Source: an uncultured Verrucomicrobiota bacterium (GTDB lineage: Bacteria > Auribacterota > JABMQX01). Taken from it: a DNA stretch of 64,000 nucleotides. Position numbers and translations under genes: made by a program. Location: positions 1 to 64,000 of the forward strand of contig CAZXGF010000005.1 in NCBI GenBank assembly GCA_964640185.1, written 5' to 3'. The notes under the pieces are model-generated. The model was not told where the DNA came from. It saw only the letters and a program-made list of their open reading frames with translations, and made no database searches. Shown here one piece after another: positions 5,588 to 64,000 of this stretch. Position 1 is the first letter of the stretch. Every line of letters begins with the position of its first letter.

Positions 5588-5740
5588 TTGTGTACCTCCG
5601 CCGCAGACCAGGATTCATTCTTGTACCGCCGGCTCTCTCTTGCCGCCCGTCTCGCGCGTTTTGGCAGCCTGCTGGGGCGCGGGCAAGCGTGCGAATCAGA
5701 GAGTGAGCCGGACGCGACAGCCCCACCTTAGTGCTCTGAC

Positions 5741-5948
5741 TCATAAGTTCGGTGACGTATTCTTTTTTTGACGCGATAACAAGATGCACGGGACTTTGCG
5801 ACTTCGCGTCTCTGCGAGAGGCCTTCCCTTTTTCCATCTTTCTCTCGCCAAGACGCCAAGGGCGCCAAGGCCAGAAAAGCTTTCCCTTTACCGCGCTTCA
5901 GGCACGTATTCTGTTTTTTGACGAGATAAGAGGATAACACGATCCTCT
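5741..5948. repeat. Two direct copies of a MITE terminal sequence (cataagttcggtgacgtattcttttttgacgcgataacaagatgcac), i.e. solo TIR-like repeats
   Basis: The sequence at 5741-5800 and at 5900-5948 matches the termini of the elements at 29612-30092, 51120-51556 and 58140-58750. Confidence 0.65.
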
Positions 5949-8352: not shown

Positions 8353-8734
8353 TAAATACCACCCTCGGTGATGGGGTTCCGCTGCGCATTAAGTGCCCGC
8401 CAATCTCGACGCGAGCCATTCCAATAGATAAAAACATCGTCGGCAAAAGTCAATCCCTTTTTGAAGTGGCGCCGTAATGACTCAGTCTCGGGGGGCAGAT
8501 GAACTCACCGCAGAGAGGGCAGAGGGCGCGGAGAAAATATTTACCCATCTTCTAATGGACGCATAGGACAGTCCCACGGGCGGCTGACGAGCCTCGCGGG
8601 GGGTTCCGTTTTCCTGTTTGGCGAGCGCCCGTCACTGTGTGCTCTGAAGGCACAATGATAGCGCGTGGCTCGGATCTGACGAAGCGCCCTCGTGGCATCT
8701 CGGCGGAGGTCCCGCGGAACGCGGGATGAACACT

Positions 8735-8830
8735 CATGGGCAAGATGCCCATGCCACGCCCCCCTGCGTGCTCTGCGCACTCTGCGGTTCCACGCTCAGC
8801 CGCCCGTAACTGAGGGGTTACTACTGTCAA
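8735..8830. repeat. Hairpin repeat modules: palindrome CATGGGCAAGATGCCCATG plus CTCAGccgcccgtaaCTGAG
   Basis: The perfect palindrome at about 8741-8759 recurs at about 25573, 29901 and 47842. The gtaactgagg module recurs at 601, 916 and 54450. Confidence 0.7.
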
Positions 8831-24617: not shown

Positions 24618-25238
24618 TTATTCCTCTTCCTCAACAGGCACAACTTCAACTGTCGTTTGGTCCAGACGACGAACAACGCCGATTGGAGTGCCCGCCTTCA
24701 GTTCCTTTCCGTGGGCGGATCGGGCCCTGACGTAGGAAATCACACCGCTCTCCATGACCCGCACCTCTCCCACCCCATCTTCGGGGATGTCCAGATAAAC
24801 AGTTCCCGGCTTGCCAATGCACGTTCTCAGGTCACTCGTTCCCGCTTTCGTGAGCTTTCGCAGCCCCCAGAAAATCAAGGCGACACTGAACATCCCCGCG
24901 AGCCCCCAGATCACCGAATATCCAATGGCAGTGGAAGAGGGTTGGCCCCAGTTGAGATACAGAGCACCGCCCCACGTAAATAAGGTGAAAAAGCTGATTA
25001 TTGACCGTATGCTGACGAGTTTGAAGGAAGCGACTGCGTCAGCCGCATCAACCTCAGCATCGTAATCAACGTCATCAACGTCGCCGACGTCATCCACGTC
25101 TCCCCCCTCACCGCCCAACCCTATCAAAGCTGCCACCAATTGCCACAGAAAGAAGACGCTGAAAAATGCCGCGGCGCCATAGAAGGTCTGGTTGAGCGGT
25201 GTCAGACTGTTCCACCAATTGCTAAACCATTCTGGCAT
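24618..25238 (-). CDS. NfeD-like membrane protein (YqiJ-like) with a C-terminal OB-fold, partner of flotillin
   Basis: TM helices, an acidic DVDDVGDVDDVD linker and a C-terminal beta-rich domain. Immediately upstream of the flotillin gene, which is the canonical pair. Confidence 0.7.
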   Translation of the reverse strand: MPEWFSNWWNSLTPLNQTFYGAAAFFSVFFLWQLVAALIGLGGEGGDVDDVGDVDDVDYDAEVDAADAVASFKLVSIRSIISFFTLFTWGGALYLNWGQPSSTAIGYSVIWGLAGMFSVALIFWGLRKLTKAGTSDLRTCIGKPGTVYLDIPEDGVGEVRVMESGVISYVRARSAHGKELKAGTPIGVVRRLDQTTVEVVPVEEEE

Positions 25239-25379
25239 GACCCTGCTCCTCTGTAAGGCCGAGGTGTATCTTCCCCCGTTCTCTGCGCCTGCTGTGAAAA
25301 TGACTCGCTAATTGCCACGCGTAGCAGCTTTTACCATATTAGCCCGGACACTGCAACGGGAAAAACCCGGGCACTGTAA

Positions 25380-25960
25380 TGCGTCACTTACGGGCGGCTG
25401 AGGGTGCAACCGCACGGCCCGCGGACCACGCGGAGCCGGCCTTGTACCCCCGGCATCTTGTCCCGCGTTCCGCGGGAGGGCATCCTGCGCCCGACTGGCT
25501 CCGGCTGTACCCTTCACGGCAAAAAAGCCGCCCCCACATGGCATCCCGCCGGAGGCGGGCCCCGTAGGAATCATGGGCAAGATGCCCATGCCACGGCAGC
25601 AAAGGACTCGGTTCTTCTCATCTTCCTCTCTGCGCCTCTGCCTTGTCCTATTCCTCCCTTTTTCCCTCCCCCGCCAAGGCGGGGTTTCCGCCCGAGACTG
25701 AGGGCTTACAAGGGGGGCGTGGCCGCGTTTGCGGGGCATATCGGGCACGGCCCCTGTCATTCTCGTCGTGGTCGCCACGCCGCCGCAGGCAGGGCTGCCG
25801 GGCTTTAGCCGGCGCCACCCTTAGCCACCGGCTTTAGTCGGTGGTATCGGATACGAGATTCTTCTCGTGACAGCCGGCTTCAGCCGGGCTTCTCGACCAA
25901 AGGATTCATCCGAAGTATGCCACGCAAATACGGCCGCACCCAACCAGGGCACTTGGAAAG
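25380..25960. repeat. Repeat island of hairpin modules. It ends with a 22-nt TIR-like motif (ccacgcaaatacggccgcaccc, 25920-25941) preceded by gccgggcttctcgaccaaaggattcatccgaag
   Basis: Near-identical module string at 35020-35096. The CATGGGCAAGATGCCCATG palindrome lies at about 25573. The ORFs here are almost certainly spurious. Confidence 0.7.
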
Positions 25961-25975
25961 CCGTTTTGGATTCCT

Positions 25976-26830
25976 TCAAGAGTGTTTCAACGCCTCCGCT
26001 CCGGAGACCACATCCAGCAGTTCCTCGGTGATGTCATTCTGGCGCTGGATGCGCGCCCGGAGCTGCAGATCCTTGAGGGTGTCGTCAATGTTGTTCTTGG
26101 CGGCCTCCATGGATTGAAGTCGCATGCCGTTCTCGCCGGCGAGGCTCTCAGTGAAGGCGCGGTAGAGCGAAATGAAGGTGTATTCGTGCACCAGCTCCCA
26201 CAGAAGCCGCACCCGCGACAGGGCGAGATGCGGCGGAGAAGTGCGCGCCTTTTCGGCCTCGCGCCATTGGGTGAGGTCCAGCGGAAGGACGCGTTCGAAC
26301 GCGGGCTTGATTCGCCCCGGCGAGAGGTAGCGCGCGTAAAGCAGGTACAACTGAGCGAACGCATTGCGTCCATGAAGCTCGAGGACGATTTTGGCAATCT
26401 CATGAATGACCGCATCAACGCCGTCCGGCGAGGTCGTGGAGGGCAGTTCGGCAAGAATCGCGAGTTTCTCCCTTCGTATCAGGCCCGGGCCGCGCTTGCC
26501 AACGACGATGAATTGGGGCCCACTCGCGGTTGCGGCGTGCTTCACTGCCGCCTCCGCCATAACCTCGTTGAAGCGCCCGCAGAGACCCTGCTCCGAGAAG
26601 AACGCCAGAATCGCCGTCCCCCGCCCTTCGCTTTCCGGAAGACGGATTTCTCGCCCGAACAGACAATCCTCTATTGCGTGGCCGACCGTGTCGGCGTAGG
26701 CGCGGACGCCGTCCAGACGCTCCTCGGCTCGGCTCAGGTATGTCGCCGCGAGGGAACGCATCGAGTGAATGATGTCGCGCAGCCCCTCAATCGTCTGAAT
26801 TTGTCTCTCGATCTGGCGTCGGTTCGGCAT
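25976..26830 (-). CDS. atpG: ATP synthase (N-type) gamma subunit
   Basis: MPNRRQIERQIQTIEGLRDI is the typical gamma N-terminus and there is a C-terminal helix. It is the last gene of the operon. Confidence 0.85.
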   Translation of the reverse strand: MPNRRQIERQIQTIEGLRDIIHSMRSLAATYLSRAEERLDGVRAYADTVGHAIEDCLFGREIRLPESEGRGTAILAFFSEQGLCGRFNEVMAEAAVKHAATASGPQFIVVGKRGPGLIRREKLAILAELPSTTSPDGVDAVIHEIAKIVLELHGRNAFAQLYLLYARYLSPGRIKPAFERVLPLDLTQWREAEKARTSPPHLALSRVRLLWELVHEYTFISLYRAFTESLAGENGMRLQSMEAAKNNIDDTLKDLQLRARIQRQNDITEELLDVVSGAEALKHS

Positions 26831-28583
26831 CGTTTACGTCGTCCACGTCATCCGGTGTGGCGGCCGCGGGCTGGACTTCCGCTTTCTCTTCGTGAGATGC
26901 TTCCGTCCGCTTTTCCCGCTTTTTCTCCACGGCTTCCGTTTTCGGCTCCTCCTTCTTCTCCGGCGAGGGTTCCCCTTTTTCAGGCGGAGGTTTCTCCTCT
27001 GAGAAATCTGCGGCGATGGCCTCGATGCTCTTCGCGAGGGCGTCCCACTCGGTATCCTGGAGCTCCTCTCCGCTCTCGATTTTCTTCAGAAGCTTGCCAT
27101 GCTTCGCCGGAATCATCTCCCGCAGAGTTTGTTGAAAGCGCGCCAGTTTTTCGAGGGGGATGTTGTCCACAATGCCACGGTCCACGGAGAGAAGGATGGC
27201 CACCTGCTCGCCCGCAGTCAGCGGGTCGAGCCGCTGCTGCTTCAGAATCTCGCGGATGCGGCGTCCGCGTTCGATCTTTTTCTGCGTCTCCTCCTCCACG
27301 GTGGCGCCGAAGCGGGTGAATATCTCCAGCTCTGCGAACTGGGCGTACTCGAGGCGCAGTTGCTTCACCACGGCGCGCATGGCGGGCAGTTGCGTCCTGC
27401 CTCCGACCCGCGATACCGATTTGCCGACGTGGATGGCGGGCTTCACGCCTTTGTAAAAGAGGTCCGGGTCCAGAAAGACCTGCCCGTCCGTGATGGAGAT
27501 GAGGTTGGTCGGAATGTACGCCGAGATGTTTTTCGCCTGCGTCTCCACAATCGGCAACGCGGTGAGGCTGCCGCCGCCCATCTCCTCCTTCAGTCTCGTC
27601 GCCCTTTCGAGAAGGCGGGAGTGAATGAAGAAGATGTCGCCGGGGTAAGCCTCGCGGCCCGGTGGGCGGCGCAACAGCAGCGAGATCTCCCGATAGGCGC
27701 GCGCGTGGCGGGTGAGATCGTCGTAGATGACGATAACGTCCCTGCCCTTCCGCATGAAGTACTCGCCCATCGTCGTGGCGGCGTACGGCACAATATATTG
27801 CAGACCGGGGGAGTCATCGGCGTCCGCGCACACCACGATGCTCTGGCGCATGACGCCGTGGCTCAACAGTGATTCCGTCACACGCTTCACCGACGAGACC
27901 TTCTGGCCAATCGCCACGTAGATGCAGATGACGTCACTCCCTCGCTGACTGAGAATGGTGTCCACGGCGAGCGCCGTTTTGCCGACCGCACGGTCGCCCA
28001 CGATAAGCTCACGCTGCCCTCGGCCTATGGGAATCAACGCGTCCACAGCTTTAACGCCGGTGACGAGCTGTTGGACCACCGGGAGGCGGTCGAGGATCGG
28101 CGGCGCCTCCGCCTCGATAGGGTCCCGGCGCTCATGCTCGATGAACCCCTCGCCGTCAAGCGGCCGGCCCAGGGCGTCCACCACGCGGCCGAGCAGCGCC
28201 TCCCCAACGGGCACGACCACCACCTCGCCGGTGAGCCTCACAGGGTCCCCCGCCGAGAGCTTCTTATCCTCGCCAAGCAGGATGCAGCCTATCTCTTCGG
28301 GGTCAAGGTTAAACACCAACCCGTAAACGTTCCCCGGGCATCGCAGCAGCTCATTGAAGCGCGCCTCAGGTAGCCCGCTGACCGTCGCCACCCCATCCGC
28401 GACGTGAATGATCCGGCCCACGTGTTCAACCCGGCCCGTGAGCTCGCGCTTGGTCACGGCCTTCCTCATTTCGCCGAGCCAGGAGGTTACGAACTCCGAC
28501 AGGTGAGGCTCAAACTCCAGCAGAGATTGCGCCTCTTCGGCGAGTTTATCAATCGGTTGGGAAATCGTGCTTTCGGCTGACAT
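26787..28583 (-). CDS. atpA: ATP synthase (N-type) alpha subunit, 598 aa, with an N-terminal extension of about 20 aa and a Lys/Glu/Pro-rich C-terminal tail of about 75 aa
   Basis: GDRAVGKT Walker A and the full alpha core, then EEKPPPEKGEPSPEKKEEPKTEAVEKKREKRTEA...DD beyond the normal C-terminus. Confidence 0.9.
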   Translation of the reverse strand: MSAESTISQPIDKLAEEAQSLLEFEPHLSEFVTSWLGEMRKAVTKRELTGRVEHVGRIIHVADGVATVSGLPEARFNELLRCPGNVYGLVFNLDPEEIGCILLGEDKKLSAGDPVRLTGEVVVVPVGEALLGRVVDALGRPLDGEGFIEHERRDPIEAEAPPILDRLPVVQQLVTGVKAVDALIPIGRGQRELIVGDRAVGKTALAVDTILSQRGSDVICIYVAIGQKVSSVKRVTESLLSHGVMRQSIVVCADADDSPGLQYIVPYAATTMGEYFMRKGRDVIVIYDDLTRHARAYREISLLLRRPPGREAYPGDIFFIHSRLLERATRLKEEMGGGSLTALPIVETQAKNISAYIPTNLISITDGQVFLDPDLFYKGVKPAIHVGKSVSRVGGRTQLPAMRAVVKQLRLEYAQFAELEIFTRFGATVEEETQKKIERGRRIREILKQQRLDPLTAGEQVAILLSVDRGIVDNIPLEKLARFQQTLREMIPAKHGKLLKKIESGEELQDTEWDALAKSIEAIAADFSEEKPPPEKGEPSPEKKEEPKTEAVEKKREKRTEASHEEKAEVQPAAATPDDVDDVNDAEPTPDRETNSDD

Positions 28584-28630
28584 GGTTTACCAATGCAACG
28601 CCCCACGAGACCAGTGGCGGCAACCCTCCA

Positions 28631-29548
28631 TCACTTGCTACCCCGACTCCGCTTCGGCTTTTGCTTTCCTTCCGGTTTTGCCTCTTCCTTCGCTTCCACT
28701 TTCGGTTCCCGCGTGGATGTCTTCTTCGTCTTCGGCTCCGCTTCCTGCTTTGGCTTTTCCTTCGCCTTTTCCTTCCGCTGCTGCTTCGCCTGAGCTTGCT
28801 GCTTTTTCAGCGCTTCCTGCTGCTCCCGGAGAGACTCGTCTATCACACCACGCCAGTGCGCTTCCAGAAGGAGGTGTCCGAGCGTCACCTCCAGTCCCGC
28901 CAGCAGGGAGGGGTCTTCTTTTACCTCAAGCTCGATCTTCTTGACGCCTACCTTCTCAGCAAGCATGTTTCTCAGCCGGTCGAGCTGCTTGTCCGTCAGC
29001 GCCTCCGCGGAACGGACCGAAACGCGCTTCTCGGACTCACCCAAAGCCTTGCGTGCGCTTTCCAAATCCTCCTTGGACGTGTCATCCAGCAGCGCCTCGA
29101 GGCGTTCCAGCGCACGGTCGGTCAGCCTAACCGATGCGTCGCTCAGCGCCGAGCCGGCAACCTGCACGATAGTGTCGCGAAGCTCATCGGTGATTTTATC
29201 AAGCAGCTCGCTGCGTTCCTGATCCATAATGCGGCGGAAACGTTCCAGCCTGTCGCGGGCCAGCTCCTCGGCCTTCTTCAGCAGCTCTTTACGTTGGGCT
29301 TCGGCCCCGTCGCGAGCTTCCTTCAAAATGGAGTCTCGCTTTTCCTCAAGCTCCTTGGCGCGCTTTTCGGCCTCGGCGCGGATGCTCTCTGCCTGCTGAA
29401 GTTTCTTCTCCGCTTCCCGTAGCTCGGCTTCCATCTCATCCTTCCGCTGCTGCATCACCCGCCGCACGGGCTTGTAGAGCAGGAAATACAGAATCACGAC
29501 GAAGACGAGAATGTTAACGATCTGTCCAATGTAAGTCCAAACGGTCAT
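28631..29548 (-). CDS. atpF: ATP synthase (N-type) b subunit with a delta(OSCP)-like C-terminal region and a Lys-rich tail (probable b-delta fusion)
   Basis: N-terminal single TM and coiled coil. Residues around 200-260 (LTDKQLDRLRNMLAEKVGVKKIELEVKEDPSLLAGLEVTLGHLLLEAHWRGVIDESL) parallel the delta C-terminus (LSDEQLAKI...[36 protein letters not shown]). No separate delta gene is present in the operon. Confidence 0.75.
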   Translation of the reverse strand: MTVWTYIGQIVNILVFVVILYFLLYKPVRRVMQQRKDEMEAELREAEKKLQQAESIRAEAEKRAKELEEKRDSILKEARDGAEAQRKELLKKAEELARDRLERFRRIMDQERSELLDKITDELRDTIVQVAGSALSDASVRLTDRALERLEALLDDTSKEDLESARKALGESEKRVSVRSAEALTDKQLDRLRNMLAEKVGVKKIELEVKEDPSLLAGLEVTLGHLLLEAHWRGVIDESLREQQEALKKQQAQAKQQRKEKAKEKPKQEAEPKTKKTSTREPKVEAKEEAKPEGKQKPKRSRGSK

Positions 29549-29611
29549 GGTGCGAGGTCTCCGCTTCCGGTTCGTGCTCTATTGTAGGGTGACGGCTGCT
29601 TAGTGCTACGA

Positions 29612-30092
29612 TTCATAAGTTCGGTGGCGTATTTGCTCAGACACGATAACAGGATGCACATGATTCTTGGAATCCCGTTTATCCTTGCGAAAGGTTCTTG
29701 GCCTTTCGGTTTACCTCAACTTCTCACGTACTGGCTTACCAGCGGCAACGAGCTTGTTAATGAGTTGTATCTCCTGAGCCGCCACAACAACCTCCTTGAC
29801 CCCGCGGCACGCGGGGCTCGACGATGACCGTATCTCCTTCGACCCCGCCATGACCGGGCAGGAAGGTCTGGAGGAACGTGGCACGGGCGTCTCGCCCGTG
29901 GAAGGTCATGGGCAGGATGCCCATGCCACGTCTTCTCCGCCAATTCATTGCGCTTGGTGATCTTTCACCCAGCACCTTCCCGGCTTGTGATTTACTGGAT
30001 GGCTCACGTCTCTGGAAGAATCCCGTGTATCCTGTTATCCCGTCAAAATAGCTCCTTTCACGGCGCCATTATACGTCACCGTATTTGCGAAT
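29612..30092. mobile_element. MITE-like element (about 480 bp) with TIRs, sitting exactly between atpE (c) and atpF (b). It contains the CATGGGCAGGATGCCCATG palindrome
   Basis: Left end ataagttcggtggcgtatttgctcagacacgataacaggatgcac. Right end gtatcctgttatcccgtc...ttatacgtcaccgtatttgcgaatcc is its inverted counterpart. A copy at 51120-51556 is about 85% identical. It ends 8 bp from the atpE stop. Confidence 0.75.
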
Positions 30093-30100
30093 CCATGTGC

Positions 30101-30346
30101 TCAGCTAAACAACGGTCCCACTTTGAAGAGGAGCAGCATCGAAACCAGCAGACAATAAATCGCCGTGGACTCAATCATCGCCAGGCTCACGAAGAGCGTG
30201 CGGGTAATTGTCCCCGCAAGGTCCGGTTGGCGAGCCATAGCCTCCAGCGCCGCGGCCGCCGTTCGCGCCTCGCCCAGAGCGGGACCAATCGAGCCAATGG
30301 CAATCGTTCCGCCCGCAACGATGACTGCCAGCATTTCCGTCGTCAT
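30101..30346 (-). CDS. atpE: ATP synthase c subunit with a complete Na+-binding signature (Q..E-S-T-x-x-Y)
   Basis: ARQPDLAG and IESTAIY match the Ilyobacter tartaricus Q32/E65/S66/T67/Y70 ligand set. 81 aa hairpin. RBS GGAGGAG. Confidence 0.9.
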   Translation of the reverse strand: MTTEMLAVIVAGGTIAIGSIGPALGEARTAAAALEAMARQPDLAGTITRTLFVSLAMIESTAIYCLLVSMLLLFKVGPLFS

Positions 30347-31065
30347 TTCGTTTTCTCCTCCGTTTCGTGTTTCTCCACAACTCTGACTGCGCCTCCAATA
30401 TAAACAGTCGCAAGAACCGCAAAGATGTATGCCTGAATCGTCCCCGTGATTAACGCCAGAAACATCAACGGCAGCGGCAGGAAGAACGGCACAAGCGACA
30501 AAAGAACGCCAAACAGAATCTCGCCGCTGAGGATATTGCCGAATAAACGCACTGCCAACGCGAGAGTCCGCGAGAGGTCGGAAATGATGTTAAACGGCAG
30601 GATGATCCAGACCGGCCGGACGTACGTTTTCAGGTAATTCAGCGTCCCGGTCATGGCGATCCCGTAGAAAGGGACCGCCAGAAAAACCACGCTCGCCAAA
30701 GCTGCCGTCGTGCTGATGTCTGCGGTGGGCGGCTTGACCACTTCGAAGAAGGACGAGATGAACGCGACAAGGTTCGACGCCAGGATGAAGATGAAAAGCG
30801 AAGCCACTAACGGAACAAAGGGCCACGGGTCCCGGCCAATGATGCCCCTGATCTCTTCGCCGAGCCAGTTCAACATCGCTTCCACCACCTGTTGTGCTCT
30901 GCCCGGGGACTTCTTTCGCAGCTTCAATCTGACGAGCGCGGCGAAAACGACCACGACCGCCATAACGCCCCACGTCACTACGATAATCTGCGTAACCGGT
31001 ACAGGGCCCACCCTGAACAGTTCCACGTTCTCAAGCGGACTTGTCATAACACCACTGTTAGCCAT
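30343..31065 (-). CDS. atpB: ATP synthase a subunit
   Basis: ALAVRLFGNILSGE with the conserved stator Arg, and 5-6 TM helices. Confidence 0.9.
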   Translation of the reverse strand: MANSGVMTSPLENVELFRVGPVPVTQIIVVTWGVMAVVVVFAALVRLKLRKKSPGRAQQVVEAMLNWLGEEIRGIIGRDPWPFVPLVASLFIFILASNLVAFISSFFEVVKPPTADISTTAALASVVFLAVPFYGIAMTGTLNYLKTYVRPVWIILPFNIISDLSRTLALAVRLFGNILSGEILFGVLLSLVPFFLPLPLMFLALITGTIQAYIFAVLATVYIGGAVRVVEKHETEEKTK

Positions 31066-31423
31066 TATGCTTTATGCCTTCCGATGGCGTGGGCGAGAAG
31101 CTTCCGGCGGCTCTCGCTCTGCCAACGGCGATGGTCCGCGCCACAATGAATCCTACCACGTATGCGACCAGGCACCAGGCGCCGAGCAGAAGCGCGCCCA
31201 GCGCTCCGCCGCCAAAAAGCACCACCCGAAGCAGGGCCAACGCCACAAATTTCATGGTCCCGTTTCTCTTTCCGCCGAGATAGGCCAGAGAGTACCGCAT
31301 GAGGGAAAAATATACCCGGCCCACCGCCAGACCCGCCAGCCCCAAACCTATGGTGATTGTTATCTGAAGCGCATCCATTTCCGATTTTCCGTAAATAGCT
31401 GTCCAGCTTTTGCCCTCTCCCAC
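31058..31423 (-). CDS. atpR: N-ATPase accessory membrane protein, AtpR-like by operon position. The start may instead be the internal ATG (MDALQIT) near 31378
   Basis: Two TM helices with Arg residues (GRVYFSLMRYS). It is the fourth gene, as expected for atpR in the N-ATPase operon order. Confidence 0.5.
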   Translation of the reverse strand: MGEGKSWTAIYGKSEMDALQITITIGLGLAGLAVGRVYFSLMRYSLAYLGGKRNGTMKFVALALLRVVLFGGGALGALLLGAWCLVAYVVGFIVARTIAVGRARAAGSFSPTPSEGIKHNG

Positions 31424-31459
31424 CGGCCGTTGACGCCGGGACGCTGAATATGCGGCCGT

Positions 31460-31759
31460 TTACTGCTCTTTCGTAATCGTTCGCCAAGCGTTGACGCAGC
31501 CGACACACAGCCCGAAAAGAAGCAGCGCGATTGTCCACCTCGAGCCCGTCCCGAACTTACGGTCAAGCCACAACCCGAGAAACACACCAAGCACCATCGG
31601 CACCACCACGCTCCAGCCGACGGCGCCAATCAAGCCGACATATCCCCAGAATGATTGCCCTTTCTCGCGGCGGCCTTTCTCGATTAGCTCCCGCTGGCGC
31701 CGAACGCGGACCTCGAACTCGTCTTCGAGTTCCTCCTTATCATCATCGTGCGCGCACAT
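31460..31759 (-). CDS. atpQ: N-ATPase accessory membrane protein, AtpQ by position (AtpZ/AtpI-like)
   Basis: SFWGYVGLIGAVGWSVVVPMVLGVFLGLWLDRKFGT resembles the AtpZ/AtpI family. It is the third gene in the operon. Confidence 0.5.
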   Translation of the reverse strand: MCAHDDDKEELEDEFEVRVRRQRELIEKGRREKGQSFWGYVGLIGAVGWSVVVPMVLGVFLGLWLDRKFGTGSRWTIALLLFGLCVGCVNAWRTITKEQ

Positions 31760-32150
31760 CTTCGTACTCCATCAACCGCCGCCACGCGGCGATTTGCATC
31801 CGGTAGAGCGAGCGCGTCGAGCGATACGAGCGCTGACTTCGGTTCTCGCGCGCTTTCCGGATTTCCTCCTGAAGCGCCGCGAGGTCGTCGCTCGCGTGCG
31901 CCTCCCGCACCGCGACCTGAACCTCCTCCGTGGTCACCCGCAACACACCGTGCCGGACCGCGATATACGCTTCGCGCTCTCCTTTTCCGCCTACGCTATA
32001 CCGATAGACCAGGATCGAGGGCACCACCGCCGTCATGTACCTCTCATGCCCAGGCAGGATCCCGAACCGCCCGCTCGGGTCCTCCGCCTGGACGTACGTC
32101 ACTTCGCGGTCCAGGACAACTCGCGTTGGAACTGTAACTCGCAGCCGCAT
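31743..32150 (-). CDS. atpC: ATP synthase epsilon subunit
   Basis: Beta-sandwich N-terminus (LRVTVPTRVVLDREVTYVQAEDPSGRFGILPGH) and about 135 aa length. Directly downstream of atpD, with the four-helix-bundle cassette in between. Confidence 0.75.
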   Translation of the reverse strand: MRLRVTVPTRVVLDREVTYVQAEDPSGRFGILPGHERYMTAVVPSILVYRYSVGGKGEREAYIAVRHGVLRVTTEEVQVAVREAHASDDLAALQEEIRKARENRSQRSYRSTRSLYRMQIAAWRRLMEYEDVRAR

Positions 32151-32154
32151 CGCG

Positions 32155-32345
32155 GTACTCCATTTCGGATTTCAGATTGCGGATTGCGGATTTCACGCTT
32201 TCAGGCTTTACCTTCTCTGCGGCAGTCCATTTCGGATTTCAGAGTTTGCACCTCTGCGGTTAAGTTCTCTGCTGCACTGCACTTTCGATTGCGGATTACG
32301 GATTTCAGGTCTCGGACCCTTGTGCTTTAGCTTCTCTGCGACACT
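32155..32345. repeat. Heptanucleotide-based repeat flank (degenerate GATTGCG / GATTTCG / GATTTCA units) 3' of the four-helix-bundle gene
   Basis: Direct repeat of 32725-32920, same orientation. It is tandem, not inverted. Confidence 0.8.
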
Positions 32346-32365
32346 CCATTTCGCATTTTTCGGCT

Positions 32366-32722
32366 CTACGCCTTTCTTTTCCTTGCGGTGTTTATGGAAG
32401 CGACGCTAATCGCCAAAAGGTCATCCGCTTCTTTCATGAGGGATTCGAGCTTTTCAGCTTTGACAATCTGCGCTTCGATCAGCAACTCCATCCAATAGAC
32501 CGACTCGTCGGCTTCCTCCTCAACTGTTCCCATTTTTGAAATGAAATCGGCGGTTGATTTCGCACGGCACGCAGCGCGATAGTTCGCTCCCACCGAGGTG
32601 CCTGAGCGAAGTAACTGGCGCCCCACCACGCCAGCAGTCTGTCCCTTTGGCAGACATTCCACCAGTTGAATAATCCGAAGTCCAAAGCCCTTTGTCCTTC
32701 CCTTCAACTCTTCCCTGTCCAC
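32366..32722 (-). CDS. Four helix bundle protein (TIGR02436 / 23S rRNA intervening-sequence protein family)
   Basis: QLLRSGTSVGANYRAACRAKSTADFISKMGTVEEEADESVYWMELL is the family signature. 118 aa. Confidence 0.85.
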   Translation of the reverse strand: MDREELKGRTKGFGLRIIQLVECLPKGQTAGVVGRQLLRSGTSVGANYRAACRAKSTADFISKMGTVEEEADESVYWMELLIEAQIVKAEKLESLMKEADDLLAISVASINTARKRKA

Positions 32723-32724
32723 GG

Positions 32725-33112
32725 CTCACTCCATTTCGGGTTCCAGATTTCAGATTGCGGATTTCGTGCTTTCAGGTTTTACCCTCTCTGTTGCGACCGA
32801 TTTCGCATTGGGGATTTCGGATTTCGGATTTCACGCTTTCAGGCTTTACCTTCTCTGCGGCAGTCCATTTCGGATTCCAGATTGCGGGCTACCGACTTGG
32901 AAATCCGCATGCCCGATTTCGCATTGCGCCGTTCTGCTTTGTTCTCCTTCTCCTCGCGTTGCTTATAGACGCGATGGCAATTGCCAAAAGCCAGTAGATT
33001 CTTCCACCTCCGAATCGCGATTGTGAATTCTCGACCTCGACCACGCAATCTGCAATCTGCAATCCGCAGTCCGCAGTCCGCAATCTGCAATCTGCAATCC
33101 GCAATCCGCAAT
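32725..33112. repeat. Second copy of the heptad flank (32725-32920), then a 3' fragment of a second four-helix-bundle gene (about 32930-33010, ...KNLLAFGNCHRVYKQREEK), then a pure (GATTGCG)n array of about 10 units (33040-33110)
   Basis: Nucleotide and peptide similarity to the intact gene's 3' end. The array reads cgcaatctgcaatctgcaatccgcagtccgcagtccgcaatc... on the plus strand. Confidence 0.75.
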
Positions 33113-33114
33113 CA

Positions 33115-34584
<1,470 letters not shown>

Positions 34585-34959
34585 CTACCCGAGAAAACCT
34601 TTGACGCCGATTATGCCGTGTTGCCGTCGCTTTATCAAGTTGAAATTACCCGGCCGGTAACACCTCGGTTACGGGTAGCTGAGGGTGGAACCACAGGGCG
34701 CGCAGAGCACGCAGAGGCTGCAGATGACCGTGCGGCAAAACGAAACGCCTGCCGAAGTTGTCAGCATCGTGTGGGGTGTCCCCTCCGCTCATCGGGGATA
34801 CCGACGCCTTTTCTCTGCGCTCTCTCCGGTGAGTTCCCCCTGAAGGTGAGAGATTCCCGAGGCAATTTCAACGGGTGTGGCTGCGAAATCGTGGCATATT
34901 CGGTAGGCCTCCTTCAATCTCCTCGCTGTCGTCCTTGCGCCGGACATGCCCCGCCCTCG

Positions 34960-35100
34960 GCGGGGCGCCCCCCCTTAGCCACCTGCTTCAGCTGGTGGTC
35001 ATCGGATAGGCCGTCTCCGGCGTGAGAGCCGGCTTTAGCCGGGCTTCTCGAACAAGGGATTCATCCATAACTTGCCACGGAAATACAGCCGCACCCATTT
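34960..35100. repeat. Hairpin-module repeat ending in ccacggaaatacagccgcaccc (35075-35096), in the atpD upstream region
   Basis: Near-identical to 25855-25941. Confidence 0.7.
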
Positions 35101-35109
35101 CAACCGCCG

Positions 35110-36216
35110 TCACGACGCGCGCGCCGTTCCAACAGCTTCGGCGACATTGGAGAAACCGTCTCGCTCCAAGAGCTGGCACAGCCCCCGGTTAATCTTTCTG
35201 ACCAAACCGGGCCCCTCATATATCATAGCTGTAAGGAGCTGGACAAGGGAGGCGCCGAGCCGGATTTTCAGGTACGCGTCCTCTGCCGAAAAGACCCCGC
35301 CGACGCCGATGAGCCGGTATCGGCTGCGGTTCATCCGACGGTACGTCTCCCCAATGCACTCGTTGATTAACCGCTCGACCGGTTTACCGGAAACGGCCCC
35401 CGGCATCAGCTCGACGATATGTCGGGGCGTCCGGAGCGTATCCGGTTTGCCCGGAGGGAGGTTGAAAACGAATCCGGACACGTAGCTCACCCCTTCCACC
35501 GCCGCCAGCAATTCCTCGATTGCCCGGACTCCGCCGAGCGGAGAAACTTTCAGAAACACAGGGCAGCGGATGTCCAATTCGGACAGAGCCGTTAGCAGTC
35601 GTACAGTATTGCGCTGGTCGGAAAAGAAATCTCGCCCCATCTCGGTGTTGGGGCAACTGAGATTCAGGCAGATGTAGTCGCCCACGTTTTTCAAAATGCG
35701 GACCGAGCGCGTGTAATCGCCGATGATCTCATCATCGGACTCCGGCGCCGCGGTCTTCCCTCGGTTGGTCTTCACGATATTGATGCCCAGCGGAATCGCC
35801 AGCCTTTTGGAGGCCAGCCGAGCGGCGACTGCATCGGCTCCGTCATTCTGCAATCCGTAGTGCACGATTATCGCCCGGTCTCGCGGGAGCCGAAACAGCC
35901 TCGGTTTTGGATTGCCCTGGGAGGGCTCGGCCGATACGGAACCGATTTCGATGTGCCCGAAGCCCAACGCAGCCAACACTTCGCACGCACGCCCGCTCTT
36001 GTCAAACCCCGCTGCCAGCCCGAGAGGGTTGGGGAATCTTATCCCACACACCTCCGTTTCCAGCCTCGGATCGGAGAAGCCGGACAACGCCGACAGGAAC
36101 GGCCGGACGACCTTGACCGCTCCCAGGAGCCGGCCGGCTTGTATCGCCCGATCGTGCGCCCACTCCGGGTCAAAATGGAACAGCGCTCGACGAATAACGG
36201 TTTGGTATAGACGCAT
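35110..36216 (-). CDS. pyrD: Dihydroorotate dehydrogenase (quinone), class 2
   Basis: Start placed at MRLYQTVIRRALFHFDPEWAHDRA. GLAAGFDK, IEIGSV and GVGGV motifs. The upstream in-frame 102 codons look non-genic. Confidence 0.85.
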   Translation of the reverse strand: MRLYQTVIRRALFHFDPEWAHDRAIQAGRLLGAVKVVRPFLSALSGFSDPRLETEVCGIRFPNPLGLAAGFDKSGRACEVLAALGFGHIEIGSVSAEPSQGNPKPRLFRLPRDRAIIVHYGLQNDGADAVAARLASKRLAIPLGINIVKTNRGKTAAPESDDEIIGDYTRSVRILKNVGDYICLNLSCPNTEMGRDFFSDQRNTVRLLTALSELDIRCPVFLKVSPLGGVRAIEELLAAVEGVSYVSGFVFNLPPGKPDTLRTPRHIVELMPGAVSGKPVERLINECIGETYRRMNRSRYRLIGVGGVFSAEDAYLKIRLGASLVQLLTAMIYEGPGLVRKINRGLCQLLERDGFSNVAEAVGTARAS

Positions 36217-40384: not shown

Positions 40385-40640
40385 CGGCTGAATTCCACTC
40401 GTATGCGCTCCGCATCAATTGGAGCTGCTCGCGAGACGATTGTGAAATCGCTTCGCCGCTATATGCGGGTGTGGTTCCATTTCAGTGCGTGATCTTGCCG
40501 AGTGTAACGCCGGCGTCTCGCCCTCGGCCTGGCGCCCCAGGCGCCATCCCCCGTACGCACCCCCCTCCGCGCCTTTGCGTCAATTTCCGGGTGTGGCTCC
40601 ATTTCAGTAGGCGATCTTGCCGAGTGTAACGCTGGCGTCT
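40385..40640. repeat. Direct repeat unit 1 (about 235 bp) containing inverted copies of the 22-nt TIR motif (ggtgtggttccatttcagtg; gggtgtggctccatttcagtagg)
   Basis: Compared base by base with 40858-41095. Part of a repeat island of about 1.4 kb (40320-41700). Confidence 0.8.
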
Positions 40641-40857
40641 CGCCGGCAGTCTCGAGGGCGTCTCGCCCTCGATTCTTTCTTATCTCCTTTGCGTCTTCGC
40701 GTCTTTGCGAGAGGTCTCCCCCGTCCCATTTCTCCCGCTAAGAGGCCAACCGTCCCGCCCATCTTATTTTTCACTTGCCGTTCTCCACTCCGAGTTCTGC
40801 GACGCGGAACAAACAAACCAAGGGCGACTTCTCTACCACTTAAACGTAGCCACACCC

Positions 40858-41095
40858 ATTGTATGCGCTCCGCATCAATTGGAGCTGCTCGCGAGACGAT
40901 TGTGAAATCGCTTCGCCGCTATATGCGGGTGTGGTTCCATTTCAGTGCGTGATCTTGGCGAGTGTAACGCTGGCGTCTCGCCGGCAGTCCCGAGGGCGTC
41001 TCGCCCTCGGCCTGGCGCCCCGGGCGCCATCCCCCCGTACGCACCCCCCTCCGCGCCTTTGCGCCTTTGCGTCAATTTCCTCTTTCCTTGACAAC
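40858..41095. repeat. Direct repeat unit 2. Further related units at 40660-40862 and 41510-41700 end in ccacttaaacgtagccacaccc / ccacttaaacgcagccgcactcc
   Basis: As above. Confidence 0.8.
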
Positions 41096-41795
41096 TGACA
41101 ATAAATACACTATAATACACTCAAAAATGGCAGCGAAACCATAACGCAATCAGGACCCGCAAATGATCACCCATTCCAGTATGGCTTCTCGTCGAGAAAC
41201 TACTGGAAACTACTGGAATTTTAAGCCCTTTTTGGGGTTAAAGAACCCTCCGCAATTTCCTCTGCGCCAGTGGATTGCGCTCAGATTTTTCGCCCTTTTT
41301 GTGCTCAGAAACCCCGCGAACACCGCTTCTGGCGCCGCCCCTGTCGCTGTATTTGACTCGCCGTTGACGTGCTGTCTTCCGCTTCCCAGGGCCACGGCTT
41401 TCCCCCGGGCCGAGCGCCAGCCCAAAAAGGCAAAGTGTTCTCCACTCCGTCGGCTCCACAACCGAGGACCTTTGGGCTTAATGGCCCACCGGTTCTACCG
41501 CCTGCATCTTGCGCTCGATTCTTTCCTACATCCTTTGCGTCTTCGCGCCTTTGCGAGAGGCCTCCTCCCCTTTCTCGGGCCCAGACGCCAGCCCTTATGT
41601 CTATCCAATCTCACACTTGCGATTCACCGCTCGCAGTTCTGCAGCGCGCCACAACCACACCAAAGGCAACCTCTCTACCACTTAAACGCAGCCGCACTCC
41701 CTATATGCCAAAGTCTTGCTGTCATCCGGCATCGGCAGTACAATGGACGCAATGCCAAACGTTCCAACTGTTTTGCGAACAAGGAGGATCTTCCA

Positions 41796-47779: not shown

Positions 47780-47995
47780 GTACCTTTCAGGATGAAAAGA
47801 ACAGCCGTCCCCAACGTGGCATCCCGCTGGAGGCGGGACCCGTGGGAATCATGGGCAAGATGCCCATGCCACGGCATCCGAGGATCGGGTCGTTCTCATC
47901 CGCCTCTCTGCGCCTTTGCGTTGTCCTCCTCTTCCCTGCTTCCCTCCCCCGCCAAGGCGGGGTACCCGCTCGAGAGGGAGGGATCACCGCTGATA
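47780..47995. repeat. Hairpin-module repeat (CATGGGCAAGATGCCCATG palindrome; ctctctgcgcctttgcg...gccaaggcgggg module)
   Basis: Matches 25570-25700. Confidence 0.7.
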
Positions 47996-51077: not shown

Positions 51078-51119
51078 CCCTGATCGTTGCTGCTTCCCTT
51101 CATCCTAAGTGTTCCAATT

Positions 51120-51556
51120 CACAAATTCGGCGACGTATTCTTCCTCTGACAGGATAACAGGATAGACACGATTTTTGAAATCCTGTTTATCCCGGCGAAA
51201 GGTTGTTCACCTTTCGCTCTAACTCAACTTCCCGCTGACATAGTGGCTTGCCGGTGGCTACGATATTGTTAACGAGTTGCATGTGCTGAGCCGCCACAAC
51301 AACCTGCTTGACCCCGCGCCACGCGGGGCTCGACAATGACCGTATCTCTTTCGACCCCGCCATGACCGGGCTGCAAGGTCTCGGACAACTTCTCCGTCAA
51401 TCGTTTGCGGTTCGTGATATTTCACCCAGCGGCCCGCCGGCCTGTGATTTACTGGATGGCTCACGTGCCTGGAACTATCCAGTCTATCCTGTTATCCCGT
51501 CAAAATAGCTGCTTTCACGACACCATTATACGTCACTGTATTTGCGAATCCCTGTA
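51120..51556. mobile_element. MITE-like element, second copy of the 29612-30092 family
   Basis: About 85% identity over about 430 bp, including both TIRs. Confidence 0.75.
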
Positions 51557-51769
51557 CTAAGCCCACAAGGAAAAATTGACAACGAATTCCACAATTCGCT
51601 CTGTCCCATTTCTGCGAGGGGCCGCACCCAAAATGACCATTTGAAAAAATCGCCGGCAAAAACTATTCTACCCCCATAGCCTATTGTCAGCTCGTTTTCC
51701 CCGAGTGTCCCGTCTCTCGCAACCGGCGACGGCCATTGGGACGACAACGCTGCCGGAGGAGATTAGAAA

Positions 51770-57914: not shown

Positions 57915-58139
57915 CGCTGACTCTCCCCGGAGAACTCCGCCTCGCCGCGAACATCTCCTCCTGCTGGCAGAGCGTGCCCCGGCGTTCATGTTGAAATCTT
58001 TCAACAGTCCTGGCGCTTCTCCCTTCCCTTTATCTCGGAGGTCGCTTTTCCCCGGAGCGCCCGCTGTTCGCACCCTTCAGGCGTTTTCCCGAGGCTGTGA
58101 GCGCAGACGCTCTATCGCTTCGTGCTCCGGTTCATAAAT

Positions 58140-58750
58140 TCGGTCACGTATTTTTTTTGACGGGATAACAGGATGTGTGGGATTGCGGACTTCGGATTGC
58201 GGATTTCGGATTCCGCAATCCGCAATCTGCACTCCGCAATGGGCAGGGTGTATCTCACGAGCAACAACATCCTCCCTCAGGGAGCCTCAGCCCCACGATA
58301 ACCGTACCTGCTTCGACCCCGCCAGGGCGGGGGAGTGCGAAGTCTGCGACAACTTGTCAGCCAATTGCTTGTTCTTCCTGGTTTTTCAGAGTGCCCCACG
58401 GGCGTTCGGATTTACCGGATACCTGGGTGTGACTGTATTTGAGTGGTGGGGTTGGGATGAATCCTCTGGTCGAGAAGCCCGGCTGAAGCCGGCTCCAGAG
58501 AGGAAAAAGGCGCGCCCTGTGACCACCCGCTGAAGCGGGTGGCTAACGGGGATGCCAGCTAAAGCCTGGCAGAAATGAGGCTGTGCTGCGGTGTTGAACC
58601 CGAACCACGTGCCTGAGAAAGAACGGTGGAAAGAGGTCCCGGCTGCCACTGAAATATAGCCACACCCGGATACCTCACATTCCTCGAACGATCCGGTCTA
58701 TCCTGTTATCCTGTCGAAGGATTCCCTTCACCCCGCACTATACGTTACGG
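58140..58750. mobile_element. Composite MITE-like element (about 610 bp) with TIRs of the 29612 family. It carries a heptad-repeat palindrome (gattgcggatttcggattccgcaatccgcaatc), CTGAAGC hairpins and a ccactgaaatatagccacaccc motif (58644-58665)
   Basis: Left end ttcataaattcggtcacgtattttttttgacgggataacaggatgtg. Right end ggtctatcctgttatcctgtcgaagg...ctatacgttacggtacttgcgaacgc is its inverted counterpart. Confidence 0.65.
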
Positions 58751-59066
58751 TACTTGCGAACGCGTGTGCTTCGCCTCTTTCCGTCGCTTAAGACGGCACC
58801 CGGAAACCCCTTGCTCTCCGGCAGCGAAGGCGCCTCCGAAAAAAGAAGATGCCTCCGAAAAACGCTGTCGGGTTTCTGCGATGATTATCGAATGAGAAAT
58901 GCTAACTTGTTTCTGCGCTTTTGTTGAAAAGAAACCGCGCCTTCGAACGTGTTAGCCGTCTCTCCCAAGAGGGCAGCAAAAAACCCGCGGAGAATTCGCT
59001 TCCTAATGCTCTTGTGGATGAAGGATTGTGAGAAAAGCCGCCGTCGTACTGCCACGGCGTCTCGTG

Positions 59067-63399: not shown

Positions 63400-64000
63400 T
63401 ACCCTTATCGCATATCATCCCTTCCGGATCCGTATATATTCTCGCATACTTTCGTCGCTTAGTCAACGGGTGCGGGGTGTGGCCGCATCTCCCTGGCACG
63501 CTGTCACGCCTCGTTTTCAACCTCTCCCGTCGCACGTTTACGCCGTGCCTCTGTCCCTCTGTCATACAACGGAAAAGGCCACCGCCTCCGTATGGCCTCA
63601 GTCTCGGGCGGATACCCCGCCTTCTCGGTGGAGAGAAAAAGGGAAGAGAAGGGTAACGCAAAGGCGCAGAGACGGACCGTAACGCCGGCATCTTGACGGC
63701 TATGTCTCAGGGGACTGCCCAGCCCCCTCCGAGGCCGGGACCTCTTGGCGAGAGAATACGGGAGTGAGGAGACCTCTCGCAAAGGCGCGAGGGATGTAGG
63801 AAAAAATCGTGGGTGAGACGCCCTCGGGACTGCCGCCGAGACGGCGGCCGGCAGACGCGAATGCCGTGGCATCGTGGCGCACGGGCGTCCCGCCAGTGCT
63901 TGGCGTGCGGCCCGGCCTGTGGGTTCGTTGCCGGCGCCCCTGTTAGGCACGGGCTTCAGCCCTGCTTCAGCGGGGTCAGGGGCTTTAGCCATTTTCACCG
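63400..64000. repeat. Repeat island of hairpin modules (ggcacgggcttcagcc...gctttagcc) continuing across the window edge and matching 1-600
   Basis: The 63935-63975 string gttaggcacgggcttcagcc matches 20-45. Confidence 0.6.

Follow-up and report, generated by a model that had tools for sequence, protein, structure and literature searches.

We analysed a 64,000-nt stretch of DNA from an uncultured Verrucomicrobiota bacterium (contig CAZXGF010000005.1, positions 1–64,000; hereafter the window), in which an operon for an N-type sodium-motif ATPase (N-ATPase) carries a repeat-bearing insert in each of two intergenic spacers. The operon occupies the minus strand from 34521 to 25976 and comprises nine co-directional genes, atpD-C-Q-R-B-E-F-A-G, assigned from the list of open reading frames (ORFs) together with Pfam and NCBIfam. 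The subunits follow one another as β, ε, AtpQ, AtpR, a, c, b, α and γ, matching the N-ATPase order atpDCQRBEFAG. The atpE–atpF spacer measures 552 nt (30100–29549) and contains a miniature inverted-repeat transposable element (MITE); the atpD–atpC spacer measures 964 nt (33114–32151) and contains a gene for a four-helix-bundle (4HB) protein between arrays of heptanucleotide repeats (heptads). Coordinates of all features are collected in Table 1.

The insert between atpE and atpF is an ordinary MITE. An initial annotation of the locus had recognized it as such and given it 480 bp; the identity holds, and the element measures 496 bp. Two further full copies and a left-end fragment lie elsewhere in the window, and the three full copies align end to end. 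All three keep imperfect terminal inverted repeats of ~60–70 nt that contain the core GATAACAGGAT, of which the window holds 11 occurrences against 0.58 expected. Direct repeats of 5 bp, which are target-site duplications, surround every full copy, two of them perfectly. The stop codon of atpE (TCA on the plus strand, 30101–30103) falls inside the right-hand duplication, CTCAG, so the MITE abuts the gene and supplies its stop, instead of ending 8 bp from it as had been reported. Past the MITE, the DNA is homologous to the atpF leader and to the end of the c-subunit tail in its longer form. By the ORF list alone, the operon copy has no ORF longer than 75 aa, and its transcript is predicted to close through the terminal repeats as a long stem (z = −4.3). 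The MITE has no operon preference, because its other copies sit in ordinary intergenic DNA. Neither the window nor the fetched loci nor the plasmid collection yielded an autonomous insertion sequence that shares the terminal repeats and could be the parent; the terminal-repeat pattern, sought across all fetched loci, occurred only in the same population (L038), and a distant BLAST search of the MITE against the plasmid collection returned no match. Nested in the operon copy is a GC-rich double-hairpin repeat (CGTGGCACGGGCG..GGGCAGGATGCCCATGCCACG) that is scattered through intergenic DNA, also at ~8734–8758, 25561–25595 and 47839–47873, and that translates to spurious peptides of the 'HGQDAHAT/MGRMPMP' type in the ORF list.

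The insert between atpD and atpC had been described as a cassette of about 960 bp, formed by a 4HB gene and heptad-repeat flanks. The length, the gene and the heptad-rich flanks stand, but the insert reads as two cassettes in composite, one decayed and one intact. Along the operon strand it runs from a G-rich array through the remnant of an older cassette, two repeat units of ~82 nt, the intact gene and two further such units. The remnant peptide LLAIAIASISNARRRR matches the C terminus of the intact 4HB gene (LLAISVASINTARKRK), and an equivalent remnant is found in a related operon (L001). Host signals are built into the ends of the insert: the first heptad provides the stop of atpD, and the last repeat unit, ending in GAAATGGAGT (GGAG) 8 nt before the ATG of atpC, provides the ribosome-binding site for that gene. 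This motif is also found ahead of the 4HB start, where the second upstream unit closes with the 4HB ribosome-binding site. There is one G-rich arm against several C-rich arms, and in the predicted fold it pairs with the most distal C-rich run, enclosing the whole 900 nt (z = −3.6). As with the MITE, the insert is thus predicted to close by a long terminal stem. An AlphaFold model of the 4HB protein (pLDDT 94.7) is a four-helix bundle whose closest Protein Data Bank (PDB) entry is 2rld (template-modelling (TM) score 0.82–0.86), followed by 2gsc and by Avd of diversity-generating retroelements (DGRs; 4dwl, 8ub7). PADLOC defence models did not match the protein, and Rfam searched over 25000–36000 with E up to 1 matched no family.

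Both spacers are insertions, as comparison with a graded series of related operons, drawn from a reference-genome scan and look-ups of c-subunit variants, makes clear. In the cassette-free operons L131–L134 (AtpD identity 83%), atpD and atpC overlap by 4 nt (gaATGAgg) and atpE and atpF are separated by 33 nt, with a c subunit of 87 aa. The operons L127 and L128 (AtpD identity 86.5%) carry one tidy 4HB cassette at atpD–atpC, a c subunit of 81 aa and a 48-nt atpE–atpF spacer without the MITE. Closest is L001 (AtpD identity 92%), with a 175-nt atpD–atpC spacer holding heptads and a gutted 4HB remnant, a c subunit of 88 aa and an atpE–atpF spacer of 33 nt, again without the MITE. The window operon combines the 964-nt composite, a c subunit of 81 aa and the 552-nt spacer with the MITE. 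The empty MITE site is therefore 33–48 nt long in L001, L127 and L131–L134, and no relative examined has a MITE there. That neither spacer is ancestral is confirmed by the 4-nt overlap and the 33-nt spacer of L131–L134. The window arrangement was found again in contigs of four independent Joint Genome Institute (JGI) samples; because it recurs in these independent assemblies, an assembly artefact is ruled out. The population is present in JGI samples 3300031650, 3300032029, 3300031643 and 3300031356.

The same series documents turnover between atpD and atpC. The window and L127 each have an intact 4HB gene at this position; the two genes are 71% identical, yet each ranks only ~120th–130th among the other's homologs; their synonymous sites are saturated, with nonsynonymous divergence (dN) of 0.13–0.22, whereas the flanking atp genes have a synonymous divergence (dS) of ~1.1–1.2. 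Given this low rank, and a dS saturated beyond that of the flanking genes, the two are not simple orthologs, and the low dN against saturated dS indicates that the 4HB protein is under purifying selection. To judge from the sequences, either re-colonisation of the site or an exchange of its ORF took place, and a GATTGNG-type arm persisted throughout. An ORF-less solo hairpin, nested in the third MITE copy of the window, resembles the gutted cassette of L001; it may represent the scar of a cassette or a hairpin that moves by itself. At the other site, the C-terminal tail of the c subunit varies among close relatives, including L001 (2978–3005), with lengths of 81, 87, 88 and 90 aa, most being 87–88. 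The 81-aa form has at least two separate origins: a point stop (CAG TGA) in L127 (5235–5250) and the MITE target duplication in the window operon.

Assignment to the N-ATPases draws on several features. The alternate F1F0 (alt_F1F0, N-ATPase) models of NCBIfam are the top match for β, b and γ and rank second or third for α, ε, a and c; all these scores fall under the curated 'exception' cut-offs, and the grouping as N-type or F-type is taken from profile ranks. Hallmarks of N-ATPases are a Glu in both c-subunit helices and an ESTxxY motif (Dibrova et al. 2010, PMC2881411), and the c subunit, read from its sequence, has a Glu in helix 1 (ALGEART) and a complete ESTxxY sodium-binding motif (MIESTAIY). 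The operon has no separate δ ORF; the 305-aa b subunit joins PF00430 to a C-terminal part resembling PF00213 (OSCP). All nine subunit ORFs align at full length to those of relatives with dN/dS of 0.03–0.20, which upholds the claim that every subunit gene is intact and shows the atp genes to be under purifying selection. The description of the operon as essential-looking is doubtful, because according to Dibrova et al. (2010, PMC2881411) an N-ATPase invariably occurs as an additional enzyme in a genome that also encodes an ordinary ATP synthase. Long Lys/Glu/Pro-rich low-complexity tails form the C termini of AtpA (26787–27000) and AtpF (28631–28790); the α subunit of relatives is also long, and their b subunit is 10–57 residues shorter (248–294 aa).

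Table 1. Features of the N-ATPase operon, its two inserts and the related repeats (positions in the 64,000-nt window)
Feature	Position	Strand	Remarks
atpD, β subunit, 468 aa	34521–33115	-	Last codon and TGA stop in first heptad of G-rich arm
5' G-rich heptad array	33120–33044	-	~11 units GATTGCG/GATTGCA/GACTGCG; starts at atpD stop codon
Older 4HB cassette, remnant	33011–32943	-	Ribosome-binding-like GGAGGTGGA joined to 3' fragment encoding LLAIAIASISNARRRR
Two ~82-nt repeat units	32881–32733	-	GAAATGGAnTG ribosome-binding/start-like motif, ~35-nt spacer, C-type heptads AAATCCG/AATCCGC
Intact 4HB gene, 118 aa	32722–32366	-	GTG start; PF05635 6e-15, TIGR02436 2e-22
Two further ~82-nt units	32362–32162	-	C-type heptads; last run 32192–32165 complementary to G-rich arm
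atpC, ε subunit, 135 aa	32150–31743	-	
atpQ	31759–31460	-	PF09527 4e-19, TIGR02230
atpR candidate	31423–31058	-	Expected position; PF12966 weak, 19.1 bits, under 26-bit cut-off
atpB	31065–30343	-	
atpE, c subunit, 81 aa	30346–30101	-	Stop codon in MITE target duplication
MITE, 496 bp	29604–30099 (29599–30104 with duplications)		Direct repeats CTTAG 29599–29603, CTCAG 30100–30104
Double-hairpin repeat, 55 nt	29876–29930		Nested in the operon MITE; not in the other two copies
atpF, b subunit with OSCP/δ-like C-terminal part, 305 aa	29548–28631	-	ATG 51 nt from MITE target duplication
atpA, α subunit, 598 aa	28583–26787	-	
atpG	26830–25976	-	
MITE left-end fragment	5727–5789		
Second MITE copy, 447 bp	51110–51556 (51105–51561 with duplications)		Perfect CTAAG/CTAAG; between divergent genes
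Third MITE copy, 646 bp	58123–58768 (58118–58773 with duplications)		Perfect CTTCG/CTTCG; two nested repeats
Solo heptad hairpin, ORF-less	58181–58246		Nested in third MITE copy; G-rich arm then C-rich complement, predicted −40 kcal/mol

The 4HB cassette is far from confined to this operon. Its protein has at least 8000 homologs, of which the top ones are 75–83% identical and bear names from several phyla, many of them on contigs <2 kb. Five unrelated contexts place a 4HB gene in sense orientation behind another gene; four are operon interiors (histidine kinase/4HB/response regulator, twice; CheR/4HB/CheW; KaiB/4HB/histidine kinase), and in the fifth the neighbours are a DUF4143 gene and a transporter. 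Heptad arrays were present at every homolog locus whose flanks were read, and the flank period-7 score averaged 24/35 in 80 metagenome loci compared with 14/35 in control DNA. Clear heptads occur on both flanks in 44 loci: in 22 of these the upstream and downstream heptads are exact reverse complements of each other, and in 35 they have at most one mismatch, whereas permuted arm pairings produced 4.9 exact complements on average and 11 at most (2000 trials). Eight different complementary heptad classes were seen, and the arms therefore covary. Duplexes of arms from the same locus are more stable than those formed across loci (p = 4e-6), and the G-rich arm is the upstream one in 40 of the 44. 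Co-directionality was found for the upstream neighbour in 51/57 loci (median gap 90 nt) and for the downstream neighbour in 40/57, with orientations taken from a crude ORF caller aided by third-codon-position GC (GC3). The earlier suggestion of tolerated or selected targeting is thus sustained for the 4HB family, which sits co-directionally behind a gene, and not for the MITE with its lack of operon preference.

At a minority of loci, entire hairpin modules recur as direct repeats on either side of the gene. Direct-repeat flanks were considered as a general rule and rejected, being true in only ~17% of loci; inverted arms are the usual form. A conserved GATTGATGA double stop at the cassette start is not general either (9/77 loci versus 18/207 controls). 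Rfam has no model for the cassette arms and, across 40 homolog loci, detected no rRNA near 4HB and only tRNAs. Three unrelated metagenome loci carry a 4HB homolog co-directionally ~50–135 nt downstream of a selenocysteine tRNA gene, and a fourth follows another tRNA (tRNA-adjacent loci L061 807–901, L102 1–90, L123 109–203 and L083 1958–2030); the recurrent adjacency to tRNA-Sec suggests a preferred landing site. Viral contigs gave only 5 matches to 4HB, so phages are not the main carriers. The searchable literature holds no description of heptad-flanked 4HB cassettes beyond rRNA intervening sequences and DGR Avd, which is not proof of their being unknown.

We consider it probable that the N-ATPase operon is accessory and horizontally mobile and that two selfish elements, unrelated to each other, inserted at boundaries between its genes. 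A non-autonomous transposon with terminal inverted repeats would have inserted at a 5-bp CTNAG-like target overlapping the atpE stop, leaving a duplication that now supplies the stop. A promoterless 4HB cassette, consisting of a G-rich array, its own ribosome-binding site, the ORF and a complementary C-rich array, would have taken the place of the former atpD/atpC ATGA overlap, and the site would since have turned over, with the older cassette gutted and a different 4HB lineage now intact. The sequence shows that both elements went in where the preceding gene has its stop codon, and that the host ORFs and ribosome-binding sites all stayed usable. The operon is probably transcribed straight through both inserts, because an intrinsic terminator scan found no terminator-like site in either of them on the operon strand and only one weak promoter-like match was seen there. 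The 4HB gene would then be expressed parasitically from the host promoter by way of its own ribosome-binding site. The terminal repeats of the MITE and the heptad arms are expected to fold into long double-stranded RNA stems which, by analogy with the intervening sequence of Coxiella 23S rRNA, may be substrates of RNase III; cutting would split the message into atpD, atpCQRBE and atpFAG pieces.

Several observations weigh against this account of selfish insertion and read-through. A weak 9/12 match to a sigma-70 promoter lies in the atpD–atpC insert (33027–32998), with none in the MITE, and the promoter scan covers sigma-70-type consensus sites only. Neither insert was found to be accompanied by a transposase, an integrase or another mobility gene, and the calling of neighbour orientation is, as noted, crude. 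Moreover, arm duplexes are equally stable for the sense and antisense strands (p = 0.34), so the arms could have their function at the DNA level (in recombination, for instance) and not at the RNA level. A reading built on this, in which the arms are recombination sites (resembling the attC hairpins of integrons or serving as landing pads for homologous recombination) and the RNA stem is incidental, strikes us as rather unlikely, although it would accommodate the missing strand asymmetry, the replacement of the ORF at the atp site with its GATTGNG-type arm kept, the direct repeats of whole hairpin modules that flank the gene in some loci and the existence of ORF-less solo hairpins. No integrase or recombinase adjoins any locus examined, and the strict polarity of the arms relative to the ORF, with co-orientation to the upstream gene, also fits a role at the RNA level.

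The inserts might instead be retained for regulation, their stems, processing sites or internal promoters uncoupling atpD, atpCQRBE and atpFAG and so allowing other subunit ratios (for example, many c subunits). Three diverged lineages retain a cassette between atpD and atpC, its repeat unit supplies the atpC ribosome-binding site, strong stems are predicted in both transcripts and the weak promoter-like site would serve such a purpose; yet operons of the nearest outgroup function with neither insert, the 4HB ORF of L001 is gutted, the MITE is missing from every relative examined and its other copies in the window lie in ordinary intergenic DNA. The same cassette type also occurs in functionally unrelated operons, which points to a property of the element and not of the ATPase. 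We therefore hold regulation to be unlikely, and the specific proposal that the inserts carry promoters or terminators, raised in the initial annotation, found nothing beyond the single weak match in the atpD–atpC insert. More unlikely still is decay, whereby an N-ATPase dispensable in this lineage gathers junk on its way to a pseudogene. Second-copy status (PMC2881411), the intergenic repeats that fill the genome and the loss of a 7-residue tail from the c subunit would suit it, but it is opposed by nine intact, full-length ORFs with dN/dS of 0.03–0.20, by the complete ion-binding motif of the c subunit and by stop codons and ribosome-binding sites preserved at both inserts.

Beyond the selfish insertions favoured here, a wider proposal can be made only tentatively, as a possibility that we would not call probable: heptad-armed 4HB cassettes may be an unrecognised, cross-phylum class of promoterless 'intervening' cassettes that colonise the 3' boundaries of transcribed genes, in operon interiors and at tRNA genes. 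The 4HB protein, likely a pentamer like its solved relatives, would bind the arms of its own cassette and so drive processing, maintenance or copying, possibly through an RNA intermediate as with Avd in DGRs. Few unexplained small genes are as common in environmental genomes as those matching TIGR02436/PF05635, and the cassette gives them a concrete, testable genetic context. It also ties 4HB genes to the long-known, unexplained protein-coding intervening sequences of 23S rRNA, which suggests one element type living inside host transcripts. For the ATPase, the operon offers a natural case in which translationally coupled atpD and atpC (ATGA overlap) have been pushed ~1 kb apart with both genes under purifying selection. 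On the practical side, heptad arrays break short-read assemblies, many homologs lying on contigs <2 kb, and yield spurious ORFs of the 'IADCGLR' type.

The surroundings of the operon are themselves rich in repeats, this stretch of the genome being crowded with intergenic ones. A direct repeat pair, 86% identical, lies just 3' of atpG (25866–25942) and just 5' of atpD (35021–35097), thereby bracketing the operon, and a third, inverted copy (58424–58551) is nested in the MITE copy at 58 kb; it may be a mere abundant intergenic repeat or mark the edges of a transferred operon. One intergenic region contains a dense cluster of 60–150-nt direct repeats of families D3, D7, D10 and D18 (40401–41035, 41504–41708), with related inverted copies near 63778–63848. 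In the cassette-free relative L133, a Y1 (IS200/IS605-type) transposase gene lies directly upstream of atpD (924–1655), a further sign that the surroundings of the operon attract mobile DNA.

Compared with known systems, the atpE–atpF insert resembles other MITEs in its terminal inverted repeats, 5-bp target duplication, lack of coding capacity, several copies and empty orthologous sites; it differs in its nested secondary repeats and in having no identified parent insertion sequence. Intergenic tandem heptanucleotide repeats are familiar from the STRR family of cyanobacteria. In Beggiatoaceae, tandem TAACTGA heptanucleotides are intergenic and often lie directly upstream of start codons (PMC4679880). 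The cassette arrays are likewise tandem, intergenic 7-nt units, but their sequences differ, and complementary pairs of them enclose one particular conserved gene. Integron gene cassettes share a promoterless ORF with an imperfect inverted-repeat element, placed for expression from an upstream promoter, whereas the 4HB cassette has no attI or array platform, carries arms on both sides of its ORF and, at the loci examined, has no integrase called next to it.

Two systems share more than layout with the atpD–atpC insert. The fold of the 4HB protein is common to DGR Avd (4dwl, 8ub7; TM 0.70–0.76), at 12–14% identity and with no match by phmmer; the solved relatives crystallise with five chains. 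The neighbours of the insert are atp genes, dihydroorotate dehydrogenase and a pyrroloquinoline quinone (PQQ)-propeller protein, and neither a reverse transcriptase nor template/variable repeats were found near any 4HB locus examined; membership of a DGR is ruled out on these grounds. The intervening sequences of 23S rRNA ('S23p'; as in Leptospira and Coxiella) use the same PF05635/TIGR02436 ORF family, and the analogy drawn with them at the outset is apt for the 4HB cassette: in both, a sense ORF lies in a host transcript between complementary flanks predicted to close a stem, and both behave as horizontally acquired selfish elements (PMC4990558). In Coxiella, RNase III has been shown to cut a 4HB-encoding intervening sequence out of the 23S rRNA (PMC4990558). 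The cassette differs in lying between protein-coding genes of an mRNA operon instead of in a 23S rRNA helix, in having arms made of tandem heptanucleotide arrays and in bringing along ribosome-binding sites, both its own and that of the gene behind it. We regard the operon-borne, heptad-armed 4HB cassette as a variant of the type of element found as rRNA intervening sequences.

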